DNA of 55,387 bases, from NCBI GenBank assembly GCA_964453135.1, contig CAYVOL010000006.1, positions 1-55,387 of the forward strand, written 5' to 3'. The position numbers were made by a program, and so were the translations under genes. Of the stretch, positions 46,981 through 55,387 are shown piece after piece (within the stretch, counting starts at the first letter, position 1; every line of letters begins with the position of its first letter). The notes beneath the pieces are model-generated. The model saw only the letters and a program-made list of their open reading frames with translations. It was not told the DNA's origin and did no database searches. This DNA comes from an uncultured Candidatus Saccharibacteria bacterium (GTDB lineage: Bacteria; Patescibacteriota; Minisyncoccia; UBA6257; UBA9933).

Positions 46981-47053
46981 GGTGGCCATAGTTCAGCGGC
47001 AGAACGCCTGGTTGTGGCCCAGGAGGTCGAGGGTTCAAATCCCTCTGGTCACC
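46981..47053 (+). tRNA. tRNA-His(GTG)
   Basis: G-1/C73, anticodon arm CCTGG-TTGTGGC-CCAGG. Confidence 0.94.
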
Positions 47054-47221
47054 CAATTAAATTTAGACAATTTTATATTTCACGCCCCGCGTTTTTTATT
47101 TGTAAAAACCGGCCTTTTATTTCGTTTTCCACTTTAATCAATCGGGAAAATCTGGTATCCTTCTTATTAGATTAGAAGGTTGTTTTTTAAGGTGCGCCCA
47201 AAATTTAAGAAAATAAATAAT

Positions 47222-48193
47222 ATGATAGTAGAAAAAATTTTAAAAGAATTAACCCCGGAGAGAATAAAAAAAGAAATTGAAATGGTAAAAAGGGTTAAAT
47301 TTTCTCCTGAGCTACAAAAATGGATACAGGGATATGAGAAAGTGGGAAGAAGAGAAGGATTTACATGGAAACTCCTTTTAAATAAAAGTTCTAAAGTTAA
47401 TTACATATCCGCGCCAAAAATTTATAAAGAATCATTTCTCGAAGTTAAATTCTTGATAGCCATGTTCATAATTTTATTAGACGATGTAGCTGATGTCAGC
47501 CAGAATAAAAAATTATTGAATGAACTGCTAAAAATCCCCTTTAGGAAAGCGCACATCAAATCAGACAAATTAAATAAAAAAGAAAAAGCATATTTAAATT
47601 TTACATTAAAAGTGTGGCGCAGGATAGAAAAAATAATCAGAAAGTATCCGGGATATGGAAAACTTAAAGAAGTTTTTGAATATGACGTCAACCAGATAAT
47701 GAATGCCATAGAATATGACCATCTCGTTCACGATAATCGTTATTTAATAAACAAAACGGAATTTTGGTTATACCCCCCCCAAACTATGCAATGCATTACC
47801 GGAGTCAGTATTGATTTAATGCTTTCCCGTAGTCACAGTGAATTAAGTGTAATAAGAAAAGTCGCATGGGAATCTAATAAAATGGCGCGAATGGGCAATT
47901 GGATTAGTACCTGGGAAGAAGAAATAAAAAACAATGATTTTTCCAGCGGAGTTTTTGCCATTGCTGTAGACTCAAACATACTTACAGCCGAGGAACTCAC
48001 CAAAAATAATGCGCGCGAAATTATCGGGAAGATAAAAAAATCAAAAATTGAAAACATTCTATTAAAAGAATGGGAAGATTCTTATCAAAGGATTTTTAAA
48101 TTAAGAGAAAAAATAAAAACAATAAACGTCCCGAAGCTCTTATCCGGCCTGGAAGAACTGCTTATAATTGAAATAAGCAGAAAAAAGACATAA
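47222..48193 (+). CDS. class I terpene synthase / isoprenoid-synthase-fold protein
   Basis: LLDDVAD (DDxxD) and RMGNWISTWEEE (NSE/DTE-like N-x-I-x-T-x-x-x-E); helical-looking sequence. Confidence 0.6.
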   Translation: MIVEKILKELTPERIKKEIEMVKRVKFSPELQKWIQGYEKVGRREGFTWKLLLNKSSKVNYISAPKIYKESFLEVKFLIAMFIILLDDVADVSQNKKLLNELLKIPFRKAHIKSDKLNKKEKAYLNFTLKVWRRIEKIIRKYPGYGKLKEVFEYDVNQIMNAIEYDHLVHDNRYLINKTEFWLYPPQTMQCITGVSIDLMLSRSHSELSVIRKVAWESNKMARMGNWISTWEEEIKNNDFSSGVFAIAVDSNILTAEELTKNNAREIIGKIKKSKIENILLKEWEDSYQRIFKLREKIKTINVPKLLSGLEELLIIEISRKKT

Positions 48194-48213
48194 ATGTTTG
48201 ATAAATTTCTTAT

Positions 48214-49854
48214 ATGATTGATGTTGCTTTTATCAGCAATGCCACACTTATATTAATCAGCGCCTTGGGCGTTGGCTTGGCGTTATTAGTTTACTTTTCC
48301 GGCAGAAAAGAAAAAATTAACCGCGGGTTTACTCTAATGGTAATCACAATTCTCTCCTGGGTTGTTTTTTACCATTTTGCCACCCTATCAACTTACTATA
48401 ACTTCTCTTTGATACTTTTTAAATTAGCAACTAGTTCTGTTTTTTTATTTTTTATTATTTATTATTTTTTTATTATTAAATGGTTTTTAGAGAAAGATAG
48501 TCTATTCACGCTGTTAGGGAAACTGATTCTAATATATGGAACTATTTTTAGTTTGCTTACAATTTTCACAAATTATGTCCTAGTGAATCTAGTACATTAT
48601 GGTTGGGGAGTTGTTCCCATATTTTCTTCATGGGGTTGGTTTATTTTTTACGGCTACGTCATTTCTCTCACCATACTCATTAACGCCCTACTCGTGGCAA
48701 ATTATTTTCCGTCTCCGGAAGAAAAAAAACAAAAGATTAAATATTTCCTGATTGGACTTTTCCTTTTTGCCGGATTAAATTTTATTTTTAATGTCGTATT
48801 GCAGGTCTTCTTTAACATTTATAAACTTTATCAATTAGGCAACTATTCCGTCATATTTCTCATCGGTTTTACCGCTTACGCCATTGTCAAAAACCAGCTT
48901 TTTAACATTAAGGTTATTGCCGCGGAAATATTAACTTTCATAATCTGGACGGCGATTCTGGTTCAGTTATTCACGGCTAACAATATAAACGACAGAATTC
49001 TGGATGCCGGATTATTTTTATTTGTCGTTATCTTTGGAATTTTCCTTATCTACTCAGTCAAAAAAGAAATAGAACAACGGGAGCAGTTAGACCGCATCAG
49101 CAAATATAAAAGCGAACTCATTTCCATTGTGTCGCATCAGCTGAAAAATCCTTTGGCCATCATTAAAGGATACGCCTCTCTGGTGGGAGACGAAACCATC
49201 AAAGAGCCGTCAAAAATAAGAGAAGCTTACAAGAAAATCCAGTTTGCCGTGGATAAACTGGTGAATTTATTAAACAACCTGCTGGATTTGGGACATATTG
49301 AAGACGGAAAGATGCGCTATGAAATGGAAAACATTGACTTGAAAAAATTAGTGGCCGACGCGGTGGAAGATTTCCAGTTTCCCGCCGGCCGGAAAAATAT
49401 CACGCTTACTCTGAAAACGCCTGAGCAAGATATTTTTGTTAAATGCGACCCGTACAAATTAAGCCAGGTTTTTCGGAATTTGATTGACAATGCCCTTAAA
49501 TATACCGAAGCCGGCTGGGTGAAAGTGGTTGTGGCGCTTGCGGGAACGGAGATACTCAAACGATTAAACAGCGAAGATGGTCAGAAAACAGACGCGGCGA
49601 ATCCGCAAGAATATGTTTTAATAACAATTTCCGATTCGGGAAAAGGAATGAATAAAGAAACAATCGATGCCAAACTTTTCAAAAGGTTTTCGCGCAGTAC
49701 TACTGAAAAACAAATGATGGGTTCGGGACTGGGTCTTTATATCAGCAAGGAAATCATAGAAGGCCACGGAGGAAAAATTTGGGCCGAATCGCCGGGAGAA
49801 AGCAAGGGTTCTGTATTTTATGTGGCCTTGCCTTTTGTTAACGCTAAAATTTAA
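48214..49854 (+). CDS. sensor histidine kinase with large multi-TM (7TM-HK-like) input domain
   Basis: About 8-9 hydrophobic segments; H-box SHQLKNPL, N-box NLIDNALKY, DSGKGM, GSGLGL, GHGG. Confidence 0.93.
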   Translation: MIDVAFISNATLILISALGVGLALLVYFSGRKEKINRGFTLMVITILSWVVFYHFATLSTYYNFSLILFKLATSSVFLFFIIYYFFIIKWFLEKDSLFTLLGKLILIYGTIFSLLTIFTNYVLVNLVHYGWGVVPIFSSWGWFIFYGYVISLTILINALLVANYFPSPEEKKQKIKYFLIGLFLFAGLNFIFNVVLQVFFNIYKLYQLGNYSVIFLIGFTAYAIVKNQLFNIKVIAAEILTFIIWTAILVQLFTANNINDRILDAGLFLFVVIFGIFLIYSVKKEIEQREQLDRISKYKSELISIVSHQLKNPLAIIKGYASLVGDETIKEPSKIREAYKKIQFAVDKLVNLLNNLLDLGHIEDGKMRYEMENIDLKKLVADAVEDFQFPAGRKNITLTLKTPEQDIFVKCDPYKLSQVFRNLIDNALKYTEAGWVKVVVALAGTEILKRLNSEDGQKTDAANPQEYVLITISDSGKGMNKETIDAKLFKRFSRSTTEKQMMGSGLGLYISKEIIEGHGGKIWAESPGESKGSVFYVALPFVNAKI

Positions 49855-49871
49855 ATAAAACTATTTCTTGC

Positions 49872-49907
49872 GTCATTCCGAATTCGCCGTAGGCGAACGA
49901 GGAATCC
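49872..49907. repeat. REP/RPE-like palindromic element
   Basis: GTCATTCC-GAA-TTCGCCGTAGGCGAA-CGA-GGAATCC. Confidence 0.45.
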
Positions 49908-50051
49908 CGTATTATTAAAGCAAGGGTAAGAAGATTAATCGTCTTCCTGCCAAAGAGGCGGGAGGCTCTAGGAGACAAAAAAAGTGGGAGAATGTCGCCA
50001 TCCTCCCATAAAGAGTTCAGTTCAATCGCCAGTTTTAATCCGGGTTTTTGT

Positions 50052-50279
50052 TCACCCGGACAAAAGAGCGGTCCGCGCTGTTTTTTTAACAGCGCCAATG
50101 CCAATGATAGACGGTTTTTTCGGCGTCGCGCGTAGCTGATTACCGATAACTTGAAGCGGTATTGCCCTAATAACTCTTTTGCTTTTTCCGCAATGACCGC
50201 AATGCCAATATTCTTCTTCTTTCGCGCTTCCCACTTGGGTATCCCCGCAGATAAATGTCATCAGAAAAATCTCTGCCAT
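50052..50279 (-). CDS. small hypothetical protein with a CxxC motif
   Basis: AGGAGG SD before MAEIFL; HCGHCG. Confidence 0.55.
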   Translation of the reverse strand: MAEIFLMTFICGDTQVGSAKEEEYWHCGHCGKSKRVIRAIPLQVIGNQLRATPKKPSIIGIGAVKKTARTALLSG

Positions 50280-50322
50280 GTCTCCCTCCTGTTGTTTTAT
50301 TGCCAACGAGAAATTCGAGAAA

Positions 50323-50451
50323 TTAGCGGGAAATTAAAACAACAATCCAGTCCCAAGCGATTACCATTAGTCTGTGTCCGATGAGCGTTCCCATCCATAC
50401 AAAAGGCAGTCTCATCACCCATTCATCAAGTCTGTCTGGTTCTCGGCGCAT
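50323..50451 (-). CDS. 42-aa hydrophobic small protein (not in the ORF track)
   Basis: AAGGAGG SD; MRREPDRLDEWVMRLPFVWMGTLIGHRLMVIAWDWIVVLISR*. Confidence 0.45.
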   Translation of the reverse strand: MRREPDRLDEWVMRLPFVWMGTLIGHRLMVIAWDWIVVLISR

Positions 50452-50706
50452 CGCATCCTCCTTTTTTGTCAAAAGTTTTTGTATGCGATAGGTTTTGACA
50501 ACCGTCTGCGTCTATTTGCCTGCCGTTTATTTTCCTTGCGCGCTTTGCAACGAAAAAACCTTTTTTTAGTGCTTATTAATAATAACATATCCCTTGTATT
50601 TCTCTCAAGAAATATTATGATAATAATCAGCAAGCAATAATTGATGGCTTTGGCTATAATCGCATAACAACCGAAAGGCAATAAAAACATAAGGAGGTGA
50701 TGGTAA

Positions 50707-50880
50707 ATGAAGGAAAGGTGCGCGGGATGCGGAAACGAAACCACAACCTACGTTCGGCTTAAAAAAGCCGGTGCGTCAGGGAACAATCCCGAAAATGATT
50801 ATGTATCATTTTGTCTTTCCGGACATCGAGATGGGAAAAGCAGCTGTTGGGACAAATTCGTCAATGCCAAAGCGGCTTGA
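50707..50880 (+). CDS. 57-aa four-Cys small protein (not in the ORF track)
   Basis: AAGGAGGTGA SD; MKERCAGCG...SFCLSGHRDGKSSCWDKF...; terminator directly after the stop. Confidence 0.65.
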   Translation: MKERCAGCGNETTTYVRLKKAGASGNNPENDYVSFCLSGHRDGKSSCWDKFVNAKAA

Positions 50881-50908
50881 AAGGGGTGGTTCGCCAACCA
50901 CCCCTTTC
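50881..50908 (+). terminator. intrinsic terminator
   Basis: AAGGGGTGGTT-CGCC-AACCACCCCTT. Confidence 0.75.
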
Positions 50909-50976
50909 ATCTTACGCCAATTGATTCCGCCGAAATATTTTATTGGCGCTAATTAGTTAAATTTCCGACAAGTACA

Positions 50977-51770: not shown

Positions 51771-52328
51771 ATGAATAATTTTGATGCTCAAATTTTTAAT
51801 TTCCTTCACGGCCTGACGGAAAGCCTGCCTATTCTGAATTGGTTTTATATTTTTGCGGCGGTTTACCTGCCCTACATTATAGCTGTGATTTTCGCTATTT
51901 TGCTCTGGCGGGAAAAAAGTACTAAAAAAAGATATTTTATTTTTTTGGCTGCGCTTTTGTCCGTTATTATCGCGCGGGGAATCTTAACCGAACTCATCAG
52001 ATATTTCTATCACCGGCCGCGCCCCTTTGTTGCTTTGCAATTCAATCCCTTATTGGAAATGTCTGGAACGGAATGGTCTTTCCCGTCCGGGCATATGACG
52101 TTTCTTTTTGCTTTTATTCCGGCTGTCTTTCAACTGAATAAAAAATGGGGGTGGATTCTTACCGGACTTTCTTTTTTGGTAGGGTTAGCCAGAGTCATAT
52201 CCGGAGTTCATTGGCCCACCGATATTTTAGTCGGAATAATTCTAGGAATTGCCAGTTTCTTTTTTGTAGAATATACATTGAAACTTCAATCCTTCGGCTG
52301 GCGGACAAATCTTAAACCTCAAAATTAA
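51771..52328 (+). CDS. PAP2 family phosphatase (BcrC-like undecaprenyl-PP phosphatase)
   Basis: RPRPF, SFPSGH, RVISGVHWPTDI. Confidence 0.9.
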   Translation: MNNFDAQIFNFLHGLTESLPILNWFYIFAAVYLPYIIAVIFAILLWREKSTKKRYFIFLAALLSVIIARGILTELIRYFYHRPRPFVALQFNPLLEMSGTEWSFPSGHMTFLFAFIPAVFQLNKKWGWILTGLSFLVGLARVISGVHWPTDILVGIILGIASFFFVEYTLKLQSFGWRTNLKPQN

Positions 52329-52791: not shown

Positions 52792-53324
52792 TCATTCATG
52801 CTGAAAATGAAGCAAAAGAAACGCGGATGATTTCGGCGAATTTCATATTGTCCGAATTTGTCCGCCGCGAGGCGGATTTTTCATCTAAAATCAGCAATCG
52901 CGATTCCCGAAATTCCAGAACCTTGAAAATGATTTTTATTGGGAAATAAAAATCTACATATAGGGTAATAAATAAGTAATTAAGTCAATTAGTACACCAA
53001 ATATTTGATTGATTCTCTAACTAAAAATTAGAGAAAAATTTAAGAGCGTATGGTGGATGCCTTGACATCAAACAGCGATGAAGGACGTGGCGTAGCTGCG
53101 ATAAGCTTCGGGGAGGTGCGTAGCAACCTTTGATCCGGAGATTTCCGAATGGGAAAACCCAATATCGTAAACCGATATTATCATGCCGCTCGACGGCATG
53201 AAGCATACCCGCTGAAGTGAAACATCTCAGTAAGCGGAGGAAAAGAAAATAAAGTCCCGCCTAGCGGGACATATTCCCCAAGTAGCGGCGAGTGAAAAGG
53301 GAAGAGCCCAAACCTGTGTACTTC

Positions 53325-53365
53325 GCACGCAGTTTATAAAGTCAATAACTTTATGGCTTGCGCGC
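53325..53365 (+). repeat. 23S insertion element, copy 1 (H15/H16 region)
   Basis: GCACGCAGTTTATAAAGT-CAATA-ACTTTATGGCTTGCGCGC. Confidence 0.8.
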
Positions 53366-53733
53366 GGAGCGCGCGGGGGTTGTAAGGCAGAAAAACTTTT
53401 AGCTGTTAGCTTCCCGATGGTTAAACATTGGGTGGCTAGTGGCTAAATAATTGGTTACAAATTTTTCTGTTAGCCGAATCAGCTGGAAAGCTGAATCAAA
53501 GAGGGTGAAAGTCCCGTAGGCGAAAACGGAAAAACCAATTTTTTTGTTCTTGAGTACCTCGATGACAGAATGCTTCGAGGGAATCCGCCGGTACTATCCG
53601 GCAAGGCTAAATATGTTTGATGATCGATAGTGAACTAGTACCGCGAGGGAAAGGTGAAAAGTAGGCCCATTAGGCCGTTGAAATAGAACCTGAAACCATA
53701 TGCTTACAAGGAATCGGAGCTCTAACGCGCTTC

Positions 53734-53814
53734 GCACGCAGTTTATAAAGTCCATAAAGTTATAAAGTTCATAAAGCGCTTTATAAAACTTCAAAAACTT
53801 TGTAGCTTGCGCGC
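53734..53814 (+). repeat. 23S insertion element, copy 2 (helix 25)
   Basis: Same termini as copy 1, expanded internal 8-9-nt ATAAAG/CTTT units. Confidence 0.82.
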
Positions 53815-54452
53815 GGAACGCGCAGAGTGACGATGTGCCTATTGAAGAATGAGCCAACGAGTTTAGGTAAATCGTTTGTCTAAATCCTACGGGATGGAGG
53901 CAAAGCGAAAGCGAGTGTTAATAGCGCGTATATAACGGTTTACCTAAGACCCGAAGCCAGATGAGCTTACCCTGGCCAGGATGAAGTCCCGAGAAATCGG
54001 GGCGGAGGTCCGAACCGATTGGTGGTGCAAAACCTTCGGATGAGCTGGGGTAAGGAGTGAAAAGCTAATCGAATCTGGTAATAGCTGGTTCTCTCCGAAA
54101 TAGTTTTAGGACTAGCGCCGTGGCGTAGCCGTGGGGGTAGAGCACTGGATGATTCGTAAAGGCCGAAAGGCCGACGAATCAATCAAACTCCGAATACCGC
54201 AGGCCATATTTCACTAGTCAGACTGTGGGGGCTAAGCTCCATGGTCAAAAGGGAAACAGCCCAAATCATCATCTAAGGCCCCTAAATGCGCGCTAAGTGT
54301 TAAAGGCAGTCGTAATCCATAGACAGATAGGAGGTTGGCTTAGAGGTAGCCATCCTTTAAAGAGTGTGTAACAACTCACTATTCGATGGCGAGTTGCGCC
54401 GAAAATATAGCGGGGCTAAGCAAGCTGCCGAAGACACGGGTGCGCGTGCACA

Positions 54453-54546
54453 GCACGCAGTTTATAAGGTTAAAAGTTTTTAAAGTTTATAAAGTCAAAA
54501 CGCATTTTATAAACTTATAAACTTACAAACTTTGTAGCTTGCGCGC
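54453..54546 (+). repeat. 23S insertion element, copy 3 (helix 45)
   Basis: GCACGCAGTTTATAAGGT...ACTTTGTAGCTTGCGCGC. Confidence 0.82.
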
Positions 54547-55228
54547 TTTGCGCGTGCGCGGTAGGAGAGCATTCTAAATGCGCTGAAGCTTCAGCCGCGA
54601 GGCGGAGTGGAGCGTTTAGAAGAGAGAATGTTGGCATGAGTAACCACAAGCCCGGTAAGAAACCGGGCCCCCGTAAACCCAAGGTTTCCTCCGCACTGGT
54701 AATCAACGGAGGGTGAGGCGATCCTAAGGCAATGGCGAAAGCCGCAGCTGAAGGGTAAGCGGTTAATAATCCGCGCCATCTATGCGGTGCGACGGAGCGA
54801 CGAAGGAAATAAAATCAAGTGTCTTAATGGTTTGACATTGCTGGCTCCAAGAATTGTTGCGCAGGAAAATCCGCGCAATGGCCGGAAACGGCGAAATTCG
54901 GGAGTCGGGAAAATCTCGTTTAATAGCGGGAAATTTGATTGAAGAGCCTTCCAAGAAAAACTTCTAAGCATAACCGTATAGATATCGTACCGGAAACCGA
55001 CACTGGTGGGTGAGGCGAGTAGCCTCAGGGGAACGAGTGATTTTTCCTTAAGGAACTCGGCAAAAAAGCGGCCGTAAGTTCGCAATAAGGCCTCCCCGCC
55101 GAATAGGCGGGGCGCAGCGAAAGAATCCCTGGCGACTGTTTAACAAAAACACAGCTCCCTGCGAACTCGAAAGAGGATGTATAGGGGGTGACACCTGACC
55201 GATGCGAGAAGGTTAACGGTGGCGGTGT

Positions 55229-55371
55229 GCGCATCACACTGCGTGTGATGCTAAATTTAAAATTCAAAAGTTAAAGGTCGAAATTTAGGAATTCCGACAA
55301 AGTCGGAAAACAATAATTTTGATTTTTGCATTTTGATTTTTGATTTTGAGCATCGTGCGAAGCGCGATGCG
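55229..55371 (+). repeat. about 140-nt hairpin insertion at helix 68 with 7-nt repeat arms
   Basis: GCGCATC...GATGCG ends; AAATTCA-type vs TTTTGAT-type arms; central TTCCGAC-AAA-GTCGGAA. Confidence 0.7.
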
Positions 55372-55387
55372 ATTGGGGGTTGTAAGA

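Follow-up and report, generated by a model that had tools for sequence, protein, structure and literature searches.

A class I terpenoid-synthase-fold protein encoded with a 7TM-type histidine kinase in a Saccharibacteria genome is a candidate signal-regulated enzyme

Terpene synthases are usually seen as enzymes of secondary metabolism under transcriptional regulation. Those of class I carry the motifs DDxxD and (N/D)Dxx(S/T)xxxE, and an RY pair is a further feature of bacterial terpene synthases. In the operons for geosmin and 2-methylisoborneol, canonical synthase genes lie beside separate genes for cyclic-nucleotide-binding proteins. Autoinducer synthases are paired with membrane-kinase receptors in the CqsA/CqsS and LuxM/LuxN systems, and regulators with an enzymatic output include the REC-GGDEF protein PleD, CheB and PilZ-regulated cellulose synthase. 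Our full-text literature searches found no description of terpene synthases in signalling operons or fusions. In the available text of the 2018 census of archaeal two-component systems (PMC5847659), the terpene-synthase fold is not among the output domains, and neither "terpen" nor "isopren" occurs.

An archaeal enzyme, the beta-bisabolol synthase A0A5E4I9B1, has been described in the EnzymeExplorer preprint (10.1101/2024.01.29.577750). According to the available part of that source, it is catalytically active, has the alpha domain as its only domain, receives no standard Pfam call and bears the motifs R24, 67-DDXXD and 221-NTLNTWPRE; many such enzymes are predicted in Halobacteriota. The available part has no mention of CPR bacteria, and the term "response regulator" is absent from the main text. 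In Haloferax volcanii, quorum sensing responds to an unidentified signal and acts through a response regulator of the Bat type, as stated in the available part of another preprint (10.1101/2025.11.10.687552).

Here, we describe a two-gene locus of an uncultured Candidatus Saccharibacteria bacterium. The window, meaning the whole stretch of DNA that was analysed, is 55,387 nt long, and its relevant features are as follows.

46982..47054, + strand: tRNA-His (GTG), found by ARAGORN and by Rfam tRNA (67 bits)
47222..48193, + strand: ORF A (P0001), 323 aa, class I terpenoid-synthase-fold protein, putative enzyme
47480..47494, + strand: DDVAD, residues 87-91, first aspartate-rich motif, putatively Mg-binding, closing helix 66-93 on its C-terminal side
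47897..47923, + strand: NWISTWEEE, residues 226-234, NSE-type triad N226/T230/E234, at the C-terminal end of helix 208-236
48214..49854, + strand: ORF B (P0002), 546 aa, HisKA_7TM-type membrane sensor histidine kinase without a receiver domain
48214..49068, + strand: kinase input region, residues 1-285, a 7TM bundle with an extra TM helix and a beta-hairpin at 123-137 (hydropathy, AF2)
49108..49308, + strand: HisKA (DHp), residues 299-365 (Pfam PF00512, E 1e-13)
49135-49137, + strand: phospho-acceptor H308, invariant in 20 orthologues
49447..49836, + strand: HATPase_c catalytic domain, residues 412-541 (PF02518, E 2.2e-23)
49875..49905, no strand assigned: imperfect hairpin with 14-nt arms, 79% complementary, without a T-run (repeat search)

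A reading made earlier from the sequence alone, hereafter the sequence-only reading, had pointed to two co-oriented genes 20 nt apart, about 170 nt behind tRNA-His, in an AT-rich stretch followed by a palindromic element. The ORF list (ORF A, 47180/47222-48193; ORF B, 48214-49854; both on the + strand) agreed with this, the ORF A stop being 20 nt from the ORF B start. The ATG at 47222 was taken as the start of ORF A because it fits the N-termini of the homologues (M-I/V-I/V-E-K-I-L), from which the upstream TTG at 47180 gets no such support. From the ARAGORN/Rfam tRNA to this ATG the distance was 167 nt. The GC content was 0.338 and 0.320 in the intervals at 47-49 kb versus 0.435 for the genome; ORF A (GC 0.318, z = -3.0) ranked fourth lowest among the 467 genes of at least 150 aa, and ORF B had a value of 0.375 (z = -1.6). 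The tRNA-His gene marks the 5' edge of this low-GC stretch. The palindromic element was found in part: several short imperfect hairpins occur past the kinase stop codon, but no long perfect palindrome adjoins the kinase gene. The hairpin at 49875-49905 starts 20 nt 3' of the kinase stop codon and may mark the end of the operon, and a terminator-like hairpin lies on the minus strand at 49985-50008.

The fold of the ORF A product was examined with an AF2 model (pLDDT 91.5, pTM 0.89). The results bore out the terpene-synthase-like fold proposed earlier. With VIA-align, the model matched the pimarane-type diterpene synthase Sat1646 (7e4n) over 263 residues (Z 21.1, rmsd 4.2) and 1n20_B over 276 residues (Z 20.9, rmsd 3.3), and the remaining matches were class I terpene synthases as well; the Z values to class I terpene synthases were 20-21, with 257-290 residues aligned. 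The best Foldseek match was 9kgb, tolypothrichol synthase (E 1e-4). In a protein atlas, the clusters nearest to P0001 were named "Terpene synthase family protein" (score 0.97). Neither sequence searches nor profile searches of P0001 against PDB chains gave a match. The Pfam family Terpene_syn_C_2 (PF19086) hit P0001 with an E value of 0.001 and 19.3 bits, under the cut-off of 23.7. Because P0001 falls below this cut-off while 18 of 41 homologues match PF19086 at E<=0.01 (best E 3.7e-6) and a few exceed the cut-off (e.g., P0181, 26.7 bits), the P0001 family is, as judged by sequence, a divergent sister family and not a member of PF19086.

Both motifs highlighted in the sequence-only reading, DDVAD and NWISTWEEE, are present in the ORF A translation at the nucleotides it had named. 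They are not chance occurrences, since their key residues are near-invariant among 339 family members, fused and archaeal sequences included: D87 is kept in 328, D88 in 336, D or E at position 91 in 335, N226 in 334, T230 in 327 and E234 in 336. The triad of the second motif has the canonical 1-5-9 spacing, with W instead of D at the second position, and the family consensus reads N-W-[ILV]-[ST]-T-W-E-R-E. The pattern N-x3-TW-x-RE was matched by 302 of the collected family sequences. P0001 itself has E233 and N219 where 314 of the 339 relatives have Arg and, likewise in 314, Gln; in all, it deviates at 3 of 32 highly conserved columns, compared with a family median of 2. No RY dipeptide was seen after the NSE motif in P0001. 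The whole-length superposition of the model on synthases with bound Mg/PPi implies that the two motifs would face one active-site cavity, the putative site of Mg3-PPi.

We then turn to ORF B, for which a kinase with a large hydrophobic N terminus and complete HisKA and HATPase boxes had been claimed. Hydropathy showed about eight hydrophobic segments within residues 10-280, and the two Pfam domains listed above agreed with the rest of the claim. Besides H308, the HATPase_c residues N426, D474, G476, G478, G503 and G505 were invariant in the 20 orthologues. HisKA_7TM (PF16927) hit P0002 with an E value of 1.4e-5 and 25.5 bits, under the cut-off of 28.6, which was exceeded by the orthologues L026 (38.8 bits) and L035 (34.3 bits). 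In the AF2 model (pLDDT 87.8), a seven-helix bundle is joined by one further helix. In fold comparison, the input region came closest to 7TM bundles of the GPCR type (219 residues, Z 17.0), and lipid-ligand receptors were among the matches at Z 13-14; these values are to be read against the high background Z that helical bundles yield. Pfam and NCBIfam found no receiver domain in P0002, which is thus not a hybrid kinase.

The homologous loci showed that the pairing is conserved. At all 28 CPR-type loci with a synthase-like gene, the gene directly behind it, in the same orientation, encodes a kinase, as the suspected linkage to 7TM-type kinases would have it, and every one of these kinases is a full-length orthologue of P0002. 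The gap between the two genes ranges from -10 to +28 nt, so that some genes overlap; the sole exception (226 nt) is at a locus whose kinase ORF is truncated where the contig ends. The paired loci span lineages sharing just 33-52% identity. Pairwise identities of synthase and kinase correlated with r = 0.57, a value reached by 0 of 2000 permutations and confounded by shared locus ancestry. Among 85 neighbouring ORFs of CPR-type loci, polyprenyl_synt was found in 9 loci, UbiA in 2, geranylgeranyl reductase in 2 and Nudix proteins in 6, the Nudix protein of L028 matching the NCBIfam IPP-isomerase model (174.6 bits, cut-off 127). The isoprenoid context expected from the sequence-only reading is thus seen in these neighbours. 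A stand-alone REC gene lies directly behind the kinase in 4 of about 19 CPR-type loci with room downstream.

The kinase lineage extends beyond the synthase. Among 201 sampled genomes of the class, 98 had homologues of its input domain but only 4 had the synthase, so the distribution of the kinase does not follow that of the synthase. At ten loci with the best kinase homologues in synthase-free genomes, UbiA was directly upstream in five and polyprenyl_synt directly downstream in two. Kinases linked to the synthase and those linked to UbiA are intermingled in a single clade of the kinase tree (SH-aLRT 99).

A link to signalling was also found among the more distant relatives of ORF A. The synthase-like family comprises 592 representative clusters at 50% identity, and all record names examined were "hypothetical" or "uncharacterized" except that of one fusion, named after its DXS half. 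A scan of the 69 long representatives revealed PilZ fused to the synthase domain in 8 (REC-PilZ-synthase in P0159 and PilZ-synthase in 7 further ones) and a cNMP_binding-synthase fusion in 2. REC-HalX-synthase proteins are encoded at L064 and L078, and REC-synthase proteins at L074 and L083; fusions to a GGR domain were also seen among family members. In the fused relatives, the REC, PilZ and cNMP-binding domains are N-terminal to the synthase domain; P0001 stands alone. The archaeal relatives lie in Halobacteriota. A signalling gene at position +/-1 or a signalling fusion was present in 29 of 40 archaeal loci, whereas the control, 112 ORFs at positions +/-3 and +/-4 of the same loci, gave 6; the partners were Bat-like PAS-GAF-HTH regulators, PAS kinases, REC-PAS proteins and FIST proteins. 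The pairing kept in related bacteria, together with the archaeal fusions, suggests that signalling switches terpene chemistry on and off. By analogy with known regulators, REC, PilZ or cNMP-binding domains upstream of a synthase domain form the layout of a regulated output enzyme. Because the REC- and PilZ-fused relatives are distant (25-35% identity), we infer the same logic for the CPR operon by extension.

The reading that we favour, to which as a whole we give a probability of about 0.5, is that ORF A and ORF B form a tightly coupled two-gene operon, in which ORF A encodes a putative Mg2+- and diphosphate-dependent enzyme of the class I terpenoid-synthase fold that is regulated by the kinase pathway. 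The operon would be one form of a CPR module whose kinases, all of one lineage, stand directly behind a prenyl-diphosphate-using enzyme, either this synthase-like protein or UbiA, often with genes for a short-chain prenyl-diphosphate synthase, IPP isomerase, geranylgeranyl reductase and a stand-alone receiver close by. The 7TM domain would read a membrane or isoprenoid-lipid cue, the kinase would phosphorylate a single-domain receiver encoded elsewhere in the host genome, and the receiver would in turn switch the enzyme, with FPP or GGPP being converted to a hydrophobic terpenoid only when the signal is present. As a secondary idea, the product might feed back onto the 7TM domain. The host genome holds seven REC matches and a single polyprenyl_synt match, on contigs C1, C2 and C5, the window being C6; there is no receiver gene beside the pair, and the window has neither a response regulator nor a prenyl-diphosphate synthase, as had been said before. 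Two receivers are candidate partners of the kinase, and indistinguishable as such. The one at C2:114396-114869 is the most like the stand-alone receivers of kinase-adjacent loci, and the one at C1:155490-155903 adjoins the prenyl-diphosphate synthase gene of the host genome. Searches of this genome, which is 95.3% complete, found neither IspH nor GHMP kinases nor UppS, in keeping with the minimal biosynthesis assumed earlier. The absence of a recognisable IPP source counts against the output-enzyme reading with respect to substrate supply. Also counting against it are the PF19086 score of P0001 under the cut-off, the lack of PDB matches, the residues E233 and N219, the missing RY pair, the lack of a receiver gene beside the pair and the distance of the REC- and PilZ-fused relatives.

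Alternatively, the two genes could encode a synthase and its dedicated receptor. A lipophilic isoprenoid product of ORF A would partition into membranes or pass between cells, e.g., an episymbiont and its host, and would be perceived by the co-encoded 7TM kinase in an isoprenoid autoinducer loop. Such a module was the proposal of the sequence-only reading, and its fold, kinase linkage and isoprenoid context stood. Consistent with it, an enzyme for a hydrophobic product adjoins a membrane-embedded 7TM input with no extracellular sensor domain at all 28 loci, the input model is like ligand-binding GPCR bundles, and the identities of the two proteins co-vary. The slot upstream of the kinase is elsewhere taken by UbiA, which also makes membrane-bound prenylated products, and the haloarchaeal gene adjoins regulators of the Bat type, the type that acts in H. 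volcanii quorum sensing in the available part of the preprint cited above (10.1101/2025.11.10.687552). A ligand role like that in CqsA/CqsS, however, is disfavoured by the UbiA pairing and by the genome counts of kinase and synthase, from which it follows that most such kinases cannot depend on the synthase product. The upstream REC, PilZ and cNMP-binding domains place the synthase downstream of signals, the background Z of helical bundles weakens the GPCR comparison, and P0002 has no receiver domain such as that found in hybrids of the CqsS or LuxN type. We regard a synthase-receptor pair as doubtful but still in contention.

It is improbable that the ORF A product is instead mainly a cytoplasmic binder of prenyl diphosphates, reporting isoprenoid-precursor supply to the kinase or to REC/PilZ partners with turnover incidental or lost. 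The overlapping or near-abutting genes and their translational coupling would fit a stoichiometric partnership, P0001 is without the near-invariant Arg233, and sensing of scavenged precursor would be useful to an organism with no recognisable IPP pathway. Against such a co-sensor, all metal- and diphosphate-binding positions are kept across the 339 sequences, as expected for catalysis, an enzyme fold placed C-terminal to a REC or PilZ domain is arranged as an output and not as an input, and a protein with the unusual motif of the family is reported to be active in the available text on A0A5E4I9B1 (10.1101/2024.01.29.577750).

To an equally low degree, we would credit a non-classical substrate, with the class I fold acting on a phosphate ester derived from DXP or DHBP, or hydrolysing a polyprenyl diphosphate to carrier lipid, and not as a terpene cyclase. 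Fusions to DXS-like or transketolase modules occur in 28 of the 69 long representatives, including P0194 with a complete DXS (named DXP synthase in a Phycisphaerae record), and one long representative is fused to the DHBP synthase RibB. The missing UppS and a PAP2-type phosphatase resembling undecaprenyl-diphosphatase, 2 kb downstream, also speak for this reading. A DXS fusion equally fits coupling to the isoprenoid pathway, however; the neighbours in CPR loci make and handle C15-C20 prenyl diphosphates, the best structural matches are cyclases, and an essential carrier-lipid role fits poorly with presence in 4 of 201 genomes.

That enzyme and kinase are mere neighbours, functionally unlinked in an accessory cassette laterally inserted beside a tRNA gene, would agree with the low GC, the adjacent tRNA-His, the failure to find the pair elsewhere in the same family or order (7 sampled genomes) and the different region between tRNA cluster and 23S rRNA gene in a same-family genome, but it is very improbable, being strongly disfavoured by the conserved adjacency with gene overlaps across distant lineages and by the independent signalling link in archaea and in fusions.

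The output-enzyme reading concerns a large, unannotated synthase-like family that, in Bacteria as well as Archaea, is physically tied to signalling by two-component systems and second messengers. If this wiring is functional, prokaryotic signal transduction would gain an enzymatic output, or a signal source, of a new kind, and the widespread HisKA_7TM kinases of CPR bacteria would gain a first functional context, isoprenoid lipids. It raises the question of why ultra-small, probably host-dependent bacteria with no recognisable IPP pathway keep prenyl-diphosphate enzymes under sensory control. A previously unrecognised signalling-enzyme type common to Bacteria and Archaea, i.e., a terpene synthase switched by receiver, PilZ or cNMP domains whose diffusible or membrane-borne isoprenoid signal is read by the GPCR-like 7TM kinase in CPR bacteria and by the adjacent Bat-type or PAS sensors in haloarchaea, is an unlikely generalization. 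Were it true, it would amount to an isoprenoid-based circuit for cell-to-cell or symbiont-to-host signalling, and the family would be a candidate source of archaeal quorum signals that are so far unidentified, the one for disk formation in Haloferax being an example.

Compared with bacterial and plant class I terpene synthases (e.g., Sat1646, epi-isozizaene synthase and the alpha domain of bornyl diphosphate synthase), P0001 shares the single alpha-helical fold over its whole length, and it likewise has two long helices that end in an aspartate-rich motif and an NSE-type triad, which in P0001 are about 139 residues apart. The sequence identity is just 8-14%, the second motif is N-W-x-[ST]-T-W-E-R-E in the P0001 family versus ND-x-x-S-x-x-x-E, and, unlike these enzymes, members of the family sit within signalling operons and fusions. 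A0A5E4I9B1, as far as the available text describes it, has the unusual signature N-x3-T-W-x-R-E in common with the family and the same 43 residues from Arg to DD as from R44 to D87 in P0001; its DD-to-N spacing is 154 versus 139 residues. That the two belong to one family is a lead from a comparison of reported motifs.

As in CqsA/CqsS and LuxM/LuxN, a small-molecule synthase gene lies beside a gene for a multi-TM kinase with its input wholly in the membrane. CqsS and LuxN are hybrid kinases with a receiver domain, whereas P0002 has none; also in contrast to those pairs, the kinase family far outnumbers the synthase, and relatives of the synthase bear upstream receiver or second-messenger domains. 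In this last respect they resemble outputs of the PleD, CheB and cellulose synthase type, with REC, REC-HalX, REC-PilZ, PilZ or cNMP-binding domains at the N terminus; P0001, by contrast, is a separate protein rather than a fusion. As in the geosmin and 2-methylisoborneol operons, terpene synthase genes are associated with cNMP-binding regulators, but here the cNMP_binding, PilZ or REC domains are fused to divergent synthases, or a 7TM kinase is co-transcribed with one.

The sequence-only reading of this stretch had proposed a synthase-receptor module resembling CqsA/CqsS, in which an isoprenoid signal made by one gene product is sensed by the multi-TM kinase encoded next to it. The observation itself, namely the gene pair, the motifs and the kinase, was confirmed. 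The pair lies in the following surroundings.

The synthase-kinase pair and neighbouring features
47222-48193, + strand: ORF A, synthase-like protein P0001, 323 aa
48214-49854, + strand: ORF B, HisKA_7TM-type histidine kinase P0002, 546 aa, 20 nt after ORF A
46982-47054: tRNA-His, with 167 nt between its end and the pair
6732, 39805, 44526, 44985, 46465 and 46982: the six tRNA genes of the window; four form a cluster a short way upstream of the pair
51771-52328, + strand: PAP2-family phosphatase, after the triosephosphate isomerase gene, 2 kb downstream of the pair
53030-55387, + strand: 23S rRNA gene (model positions 1-1941 of 2925), inside which the window ends

The start of ORF A was placed at the ATG at 47222, in agreement with the N termini of homologues. 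DDVAD and NWISTWEEE correspond to residues 87-91 and 226-234 of P0001, where they had originally been located. The stretch is indeed AT-rich, with a GC content of 0.318 for the ORF A gene (z -3.0; of 467 genes with 150 aa or more, only three have a lower value) and 0.375 for the ORF B gene, versus 0.435 for the genome. A genome of the same family has kept the tRNA cluster and the 23S rRNA gene, with different genes in between. Because of the low GC content and the presence of other genes at the same site, the synthase-kinase pair is considered accessory and probably mobile. Lateral insertion of the synthase gene alone before a resident kinase was also considered. The kinase tree groups P0002 with synthase-less kinases of its class (SH-aLRT, 99), yet L010 is the best partner locus for synthase and kinase alike (52% and 42% identity, respectively).

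The palindromic element described 3' of the kinase could be recovered in part: short hairpins are present after the stop codon, all of them imperfect. The 1.1 kb between the kinase and the triosephosphate isomerase gene (49855-50976) has no ORF longer than 91 aa and gave no Rfam match, and tblastn against the ORFs of related loci found no remnants of cluster genes (REC, IPPS, IPP isomerase and others) there. An inverted repeat of 14 nt, perfect in its pairing, is located there at 50878-50909. The closest models to the PAP2 phosphatase were those of undecaprenyl-diphosphatase (69.9 bits, under the cut-off). A PAP2 gene likewise flanks the synthase-like gene at the haloarchaeal locus L088.

P0001 matched the Pfam model Terpene_syn_C_2 with an E value of 0.001 and 19.3 bits versus a cut-off of 23.7, over residues 81-252, which cover both motifs. 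At an E value of ≤0.01, this model matched 18 of the 41 aligned homologues (best, 3.7e-6), and PF03936 matched 3. NCBIfam contained no family for P0001, and PDB chains yielded nothing meaningful in a sequence search with P0001 or a profile search with A1, the alignment of these homologues. The AlphaFold2 model of P0001, based on the 41-sequence alignment, was all-helical, with a pLDDT of 91.5 and a pTM of 0.89. The top Foldseek matches of this model in the PDB were terpene synthases and prenyltransferases (E value of 1e-4 to 9kgb). VIA-align gave Z scores of 20-21 across 257-290 residues to class I synthases, and its matches included Sat1646, bornyl diphosphate synthase, epi-isozizaene synthase and taxadiene synthase. 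In a protein atlas, P0001 adjoins clusters named "hypothetical" and "Terpene synthase family protein" (score, 0.97). As modelled, the ORF A product has the class I terpenoid-synthase fold and is a divergent representative of it.

Conservation was counted after alignment of 339 members of the family to the A1 profile. D87 was found in 328, D88 in 336, D/E91 in 335, N226 in 334, T230 in 327 and E234 in 336 of them; R44, D155, Q158, R212, R223, W231, D239 and W284 were near-invariant too. Of 32 highly conserved columns, P0001 deviates at three (Q219N, I224M and R233E), against a family median of 2, so this copy does not look decayed from its sequence. The loss of Arg233 is noteworthy.

Close homologues of P0001 numbered 132, and a family search of 1.84 billion representative proteins returned 592 at an E value of ≤1e-3. 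Among the records seen, from organisms including Gribaldobacteria, the Patescibacteria group and Myxococcota, the names were "hypothetical" or "uncharacterized" protein; the single named exception, a fusion in a Phycisphaerae record, was annotated by its DXS half only. A scan of one genome per species gave 172 loci. The best 80 of these comprised 28 CPR-type and about 50 archaeal (mostly haloarchaeal) loci, and also included Hadarchaeota, Woesearchaeota and two Anaerolineae; loci were grouped by similarity and gene content rather than by label, since the CPR-type contigs L015, L019 and L020 are in bins labelled otherwise. Judged by these homology searches, the synthase-like family is large, unannotated and present in both Bacteria and Archaea. 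Culturable haloarchaea with a family member include Halorubrum, Halogranum and Haloferax marinum.

ORFs were called in the 80 loci and searched with the A1 profile and P0002. In all 28 CPR-type loci (L009-L031, L034-L037 and L039), a P0002 homologue comes next, in the same orientation; for these loci, the suggested check for a consistent 7TM-kinase neighbour thus had a positive outcome. The match was full length, including the membrane part, where the contig permits. The gap between the two genes was -10 to +28 nt, except in L023 (226 nt), where the contig end truncates the kinase ORF; the kinases of L015 and L018 are split into pieces. Long forms of the kinase (735-763 aa) have a GAF domain as well, located after the 7TM part and before HisKA, and two orthologues of P0002 passed the HisKA_7TM cut-off. 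Pairwise identities of synthases were correlated with those of kinases (21 pairs; r = 0.57, a value that none of 2,000 permutations attained), with shared ancestry as a confound.

The neighbouring genes place the pair in an isoprenoid context. Among 85 ORFs at positions -2, -1, +2 and +3 of CPR-type loci, we found polyprenyl_synt in 9 loci, Nudix proteins in 6, UPF0047 in 4, CMAS-type methyltransferases in 3, UbiA in 2, geranylgeranyl reductase in 2 and thiolase in 1. According to NCBIfam, one Nudix protein is an IPP isomerase (174.6 bits versus a cut-off of 127) and one reductase is a member of the geranylgeranyl reductase family; the neighbouring prenyl synthases scored highest against short-chain (FPP/GGPP-type) models, under the equivalog cut-offs. 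A stand-alone receiver of 121-129 aa lies directly 3' of the kinase in 4 loci. The CMAS-type SAM methyltransferases adjoin the synthase-like gene in L015, L016 and L024. Their match to geranyl diphosphate 2-C-methyltransferase was weak (64 bits versus a cut-off of 400), a hint of methylated terpenoids in some clusters.

The kinase is found well beyond the pair. In a sample of 201 genomes of the same class, its membrane domain (residues 1-285) matched 98, and the synthase profile matched 4, three with intact genes and one with a fragment; the sample included 7 genomes from the same family or order, none of them with a synthase match. The fragment (L104, at about 103063-103263 of contig C14 of genome G033) is a 92-aa synthase remnant with two in-frame TAG codons. 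The same genome has a 7TM kinase (L103) behind a UbiA gene on another contig. We then examined 10 kinase loci from genomes without an intact synthase gene: the eight best-scoring homologues, G009 and the same-family genome G151, with G033 having the fragment only. A UbiA prenyltransferase gene was directly upstream of the kinase in 5 of the 10, polyprenyl_synt was directly downstream in 2, PlsC-type acyltransferases were nearby in 2, and a nitroreductase/ThiF/ATP-grasp set was present in 2. When 32 kinases were placed in a tree, those linked to the synthase and those linked to UbiA were intermingled inside one GAF-bearing clade (SH-aLRT, 99). The slot before the kinase is thus filled by either of two prenyl-diphosphate-using enzymes. 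The AlphaFold2 model of the kinase membrane part (pLDDT, 87.8) consists of a 7-helix bundle, a beta-hairpin and one further helix. Its best matches were GPCR-type bundles (Z of 17.0 over 219 residues; rmsd, 3.2), a resemblance only, since helical bundles give a high background Z.

Outside CPR bacteria, the synthase domain is found with other signalling partners. A domain scan of 69 long representatives revealed, N-terminal to it, a DXS-like or transketolase module in 28/69 (one a complete DXS), PilZ in 8/69 (one of them REC-PilZ), cNMP_binding in 2/69, and DHBP synthase (RibB) and a geranylgeranyl-reductase-like flavoprotein in 1/69 each; 1/69 had the terpene-synthase signal alone with no extra domain, and 28/69 had no Pfam hit. 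In the DXS-like/transketolase fusions (P0194, P0162, P0179 and others), mostly only the Transketolase_C part was recognisable, the complete DXS being in the Phycisphaerae record. From their sequences, these may be pathway fusions or contain a degenerate regulatory domain.

In archaea, 29 of the 40 loci with scanned flanks had a fusion or an adjacent (±1) signalling gene, in a scan that left out 13 of 87 flank ORFs, including two large upstream genes of Bat-like size (L068 and L086). Divergent Bat-like PAS-GAF-BAT-HTH_10 regulators occurred at 12 loci. The remaining partners were PAS kinases, REC-PAS(-kinase) proteins and FIST proteins, with a HalOD1 protein at L079. Fusions were of the REC-HalX-synthase (L064 and L078) or REC-synthase (L074 and L083) type. 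As a control, these archaeal loci were scanned further out, at ±3 and ±4, where 6 of 112 ORFs, in 5 of 36 loci, had signalling domains; the control E value was stricter (1e-8 versus 1e-6), and the matches of adjacent genes were far stronger than either threshold. At haloarchaeal loci (L041, L049, L055, L061, L067, L070 and L080), proteins with DUF7344 and HalOD1 are repeatedly encoded no more than a few genes away from the synthase-like gene, at ±1 as well as among the control ORFs at ±3 and ±4.

The fusions are the only directional evidence. REC, PilZ or cNMP domains N-terminal to an enzyme are the standard output layout, which argues for the synthase domain as a regulated output. The receiver of the CPR clusters has no output domain of its own and must therefore act on another protein. 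We favour, at roughly even odds (about 0.5), a pathway in which the 7TM kinase would signal to the stand-alone receiver, and the receiver to the synthase-like enzyme. Sensing of the enzyme's product by the kinase, as first proposed, would fit the membrane-only input domain of the kinase and the alternation with UbiA before it, but we regard it as rather unlikely, being weakened by the occurrence of the kinase in 98 and the synthase in 4 of 201 genomes and by the signalling domains fused to the synthase. The two models are not mutually exclusive. Of the earlier interpretation, the fold, the linkage and the isoprenoid context therefore stand, and for the direction of signalling the evidence on balance leans against it.

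The host genome spans 613 kb on 6 contigs, at 95.3% completeness. As had been noted, the window has neither a receiver gene nor a prenyl-diphosphate synthase gene. The only trans-prenyl-diphosphate synthase of the genome is at C1:154421-155455, directly preceded by the gene for a 137-aa stand-alone receiver (together C1:154421-155903, - strand). This is a second isoprenoid-signalling link in the host genome. The first aspartate-rich region of the synthase presumably resembles that of type III GGPP synthases. No IspH, GHMP kinases or UppS were found in the 95.3% complete genome, nor were homologues of the IPP isomerase, UbiA, geranylgeranyl reductase and thiolase genes of related clusters, and DXS_N gave a single weak match of transketolase size. 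Since the prenyl synthase is present and IspH, GHMP kinases and UppS were not found, the host appears to handle prenyl diphosphates without a recognisable IPP route. The genome has seven REC matches and about six kinases, and no receiver adjoins P0002. Its stand-alone receivers include those encoded at C2:114396-114869, C1:155490-155903, C1:17370-17810 and C5:17540-17929. A search for its cognate receiver by similarity singled out none: receivers of related clusters matched four host stand-alone RECs at similar scores, the best being C2:114396-114869 (68-73 bits), with 33-53 bits for the REC beside the prenyl-diphosphate synthase.

Taken together, these results point to one family of enzymes with a terpene-synthase fold that is part of the signal-transduction circuits of both CPR bacteria and archaea. 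Full-text literature searches for terpene synthases linked to receivers or response regulators, PilZ, HisKA_7TM or Patescibacteria found no description of such a link, "Pilz" being mostly an author's name. In the accessible text of a 2018 census of archaeal two-component systems (PMC5847659), neither "terpen" nor "isopren" occurs, so that this text names no isoprenoid output domain. In Haloferax quorum sensing, a Bat-type regulator responds to an unidentified signal, according to the available part of the report (10.1101/2025.11.10.687552), a lead only.

The first archaeal terpene synthases were reported in a preprint (10.1101/2024.01.29.577750), the available main text of which does not contain "response regulator". 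The predicted archaeal synthases in its supplement may already include haloarchaeal members of the P0001 family. According to the same text, one of the reported enzymes, a beta-bisabolol synthase, has R24, 67-DDXXD and 221-NTLNTWPRE; exact NTLNTWPRE was not found among our collected sequences. As described there, this enzyme may belong to the family of P0001, with which it has in common the unusual T-W-x-R-E core, and its Arg-to-DD spacing is equal to that of the family.
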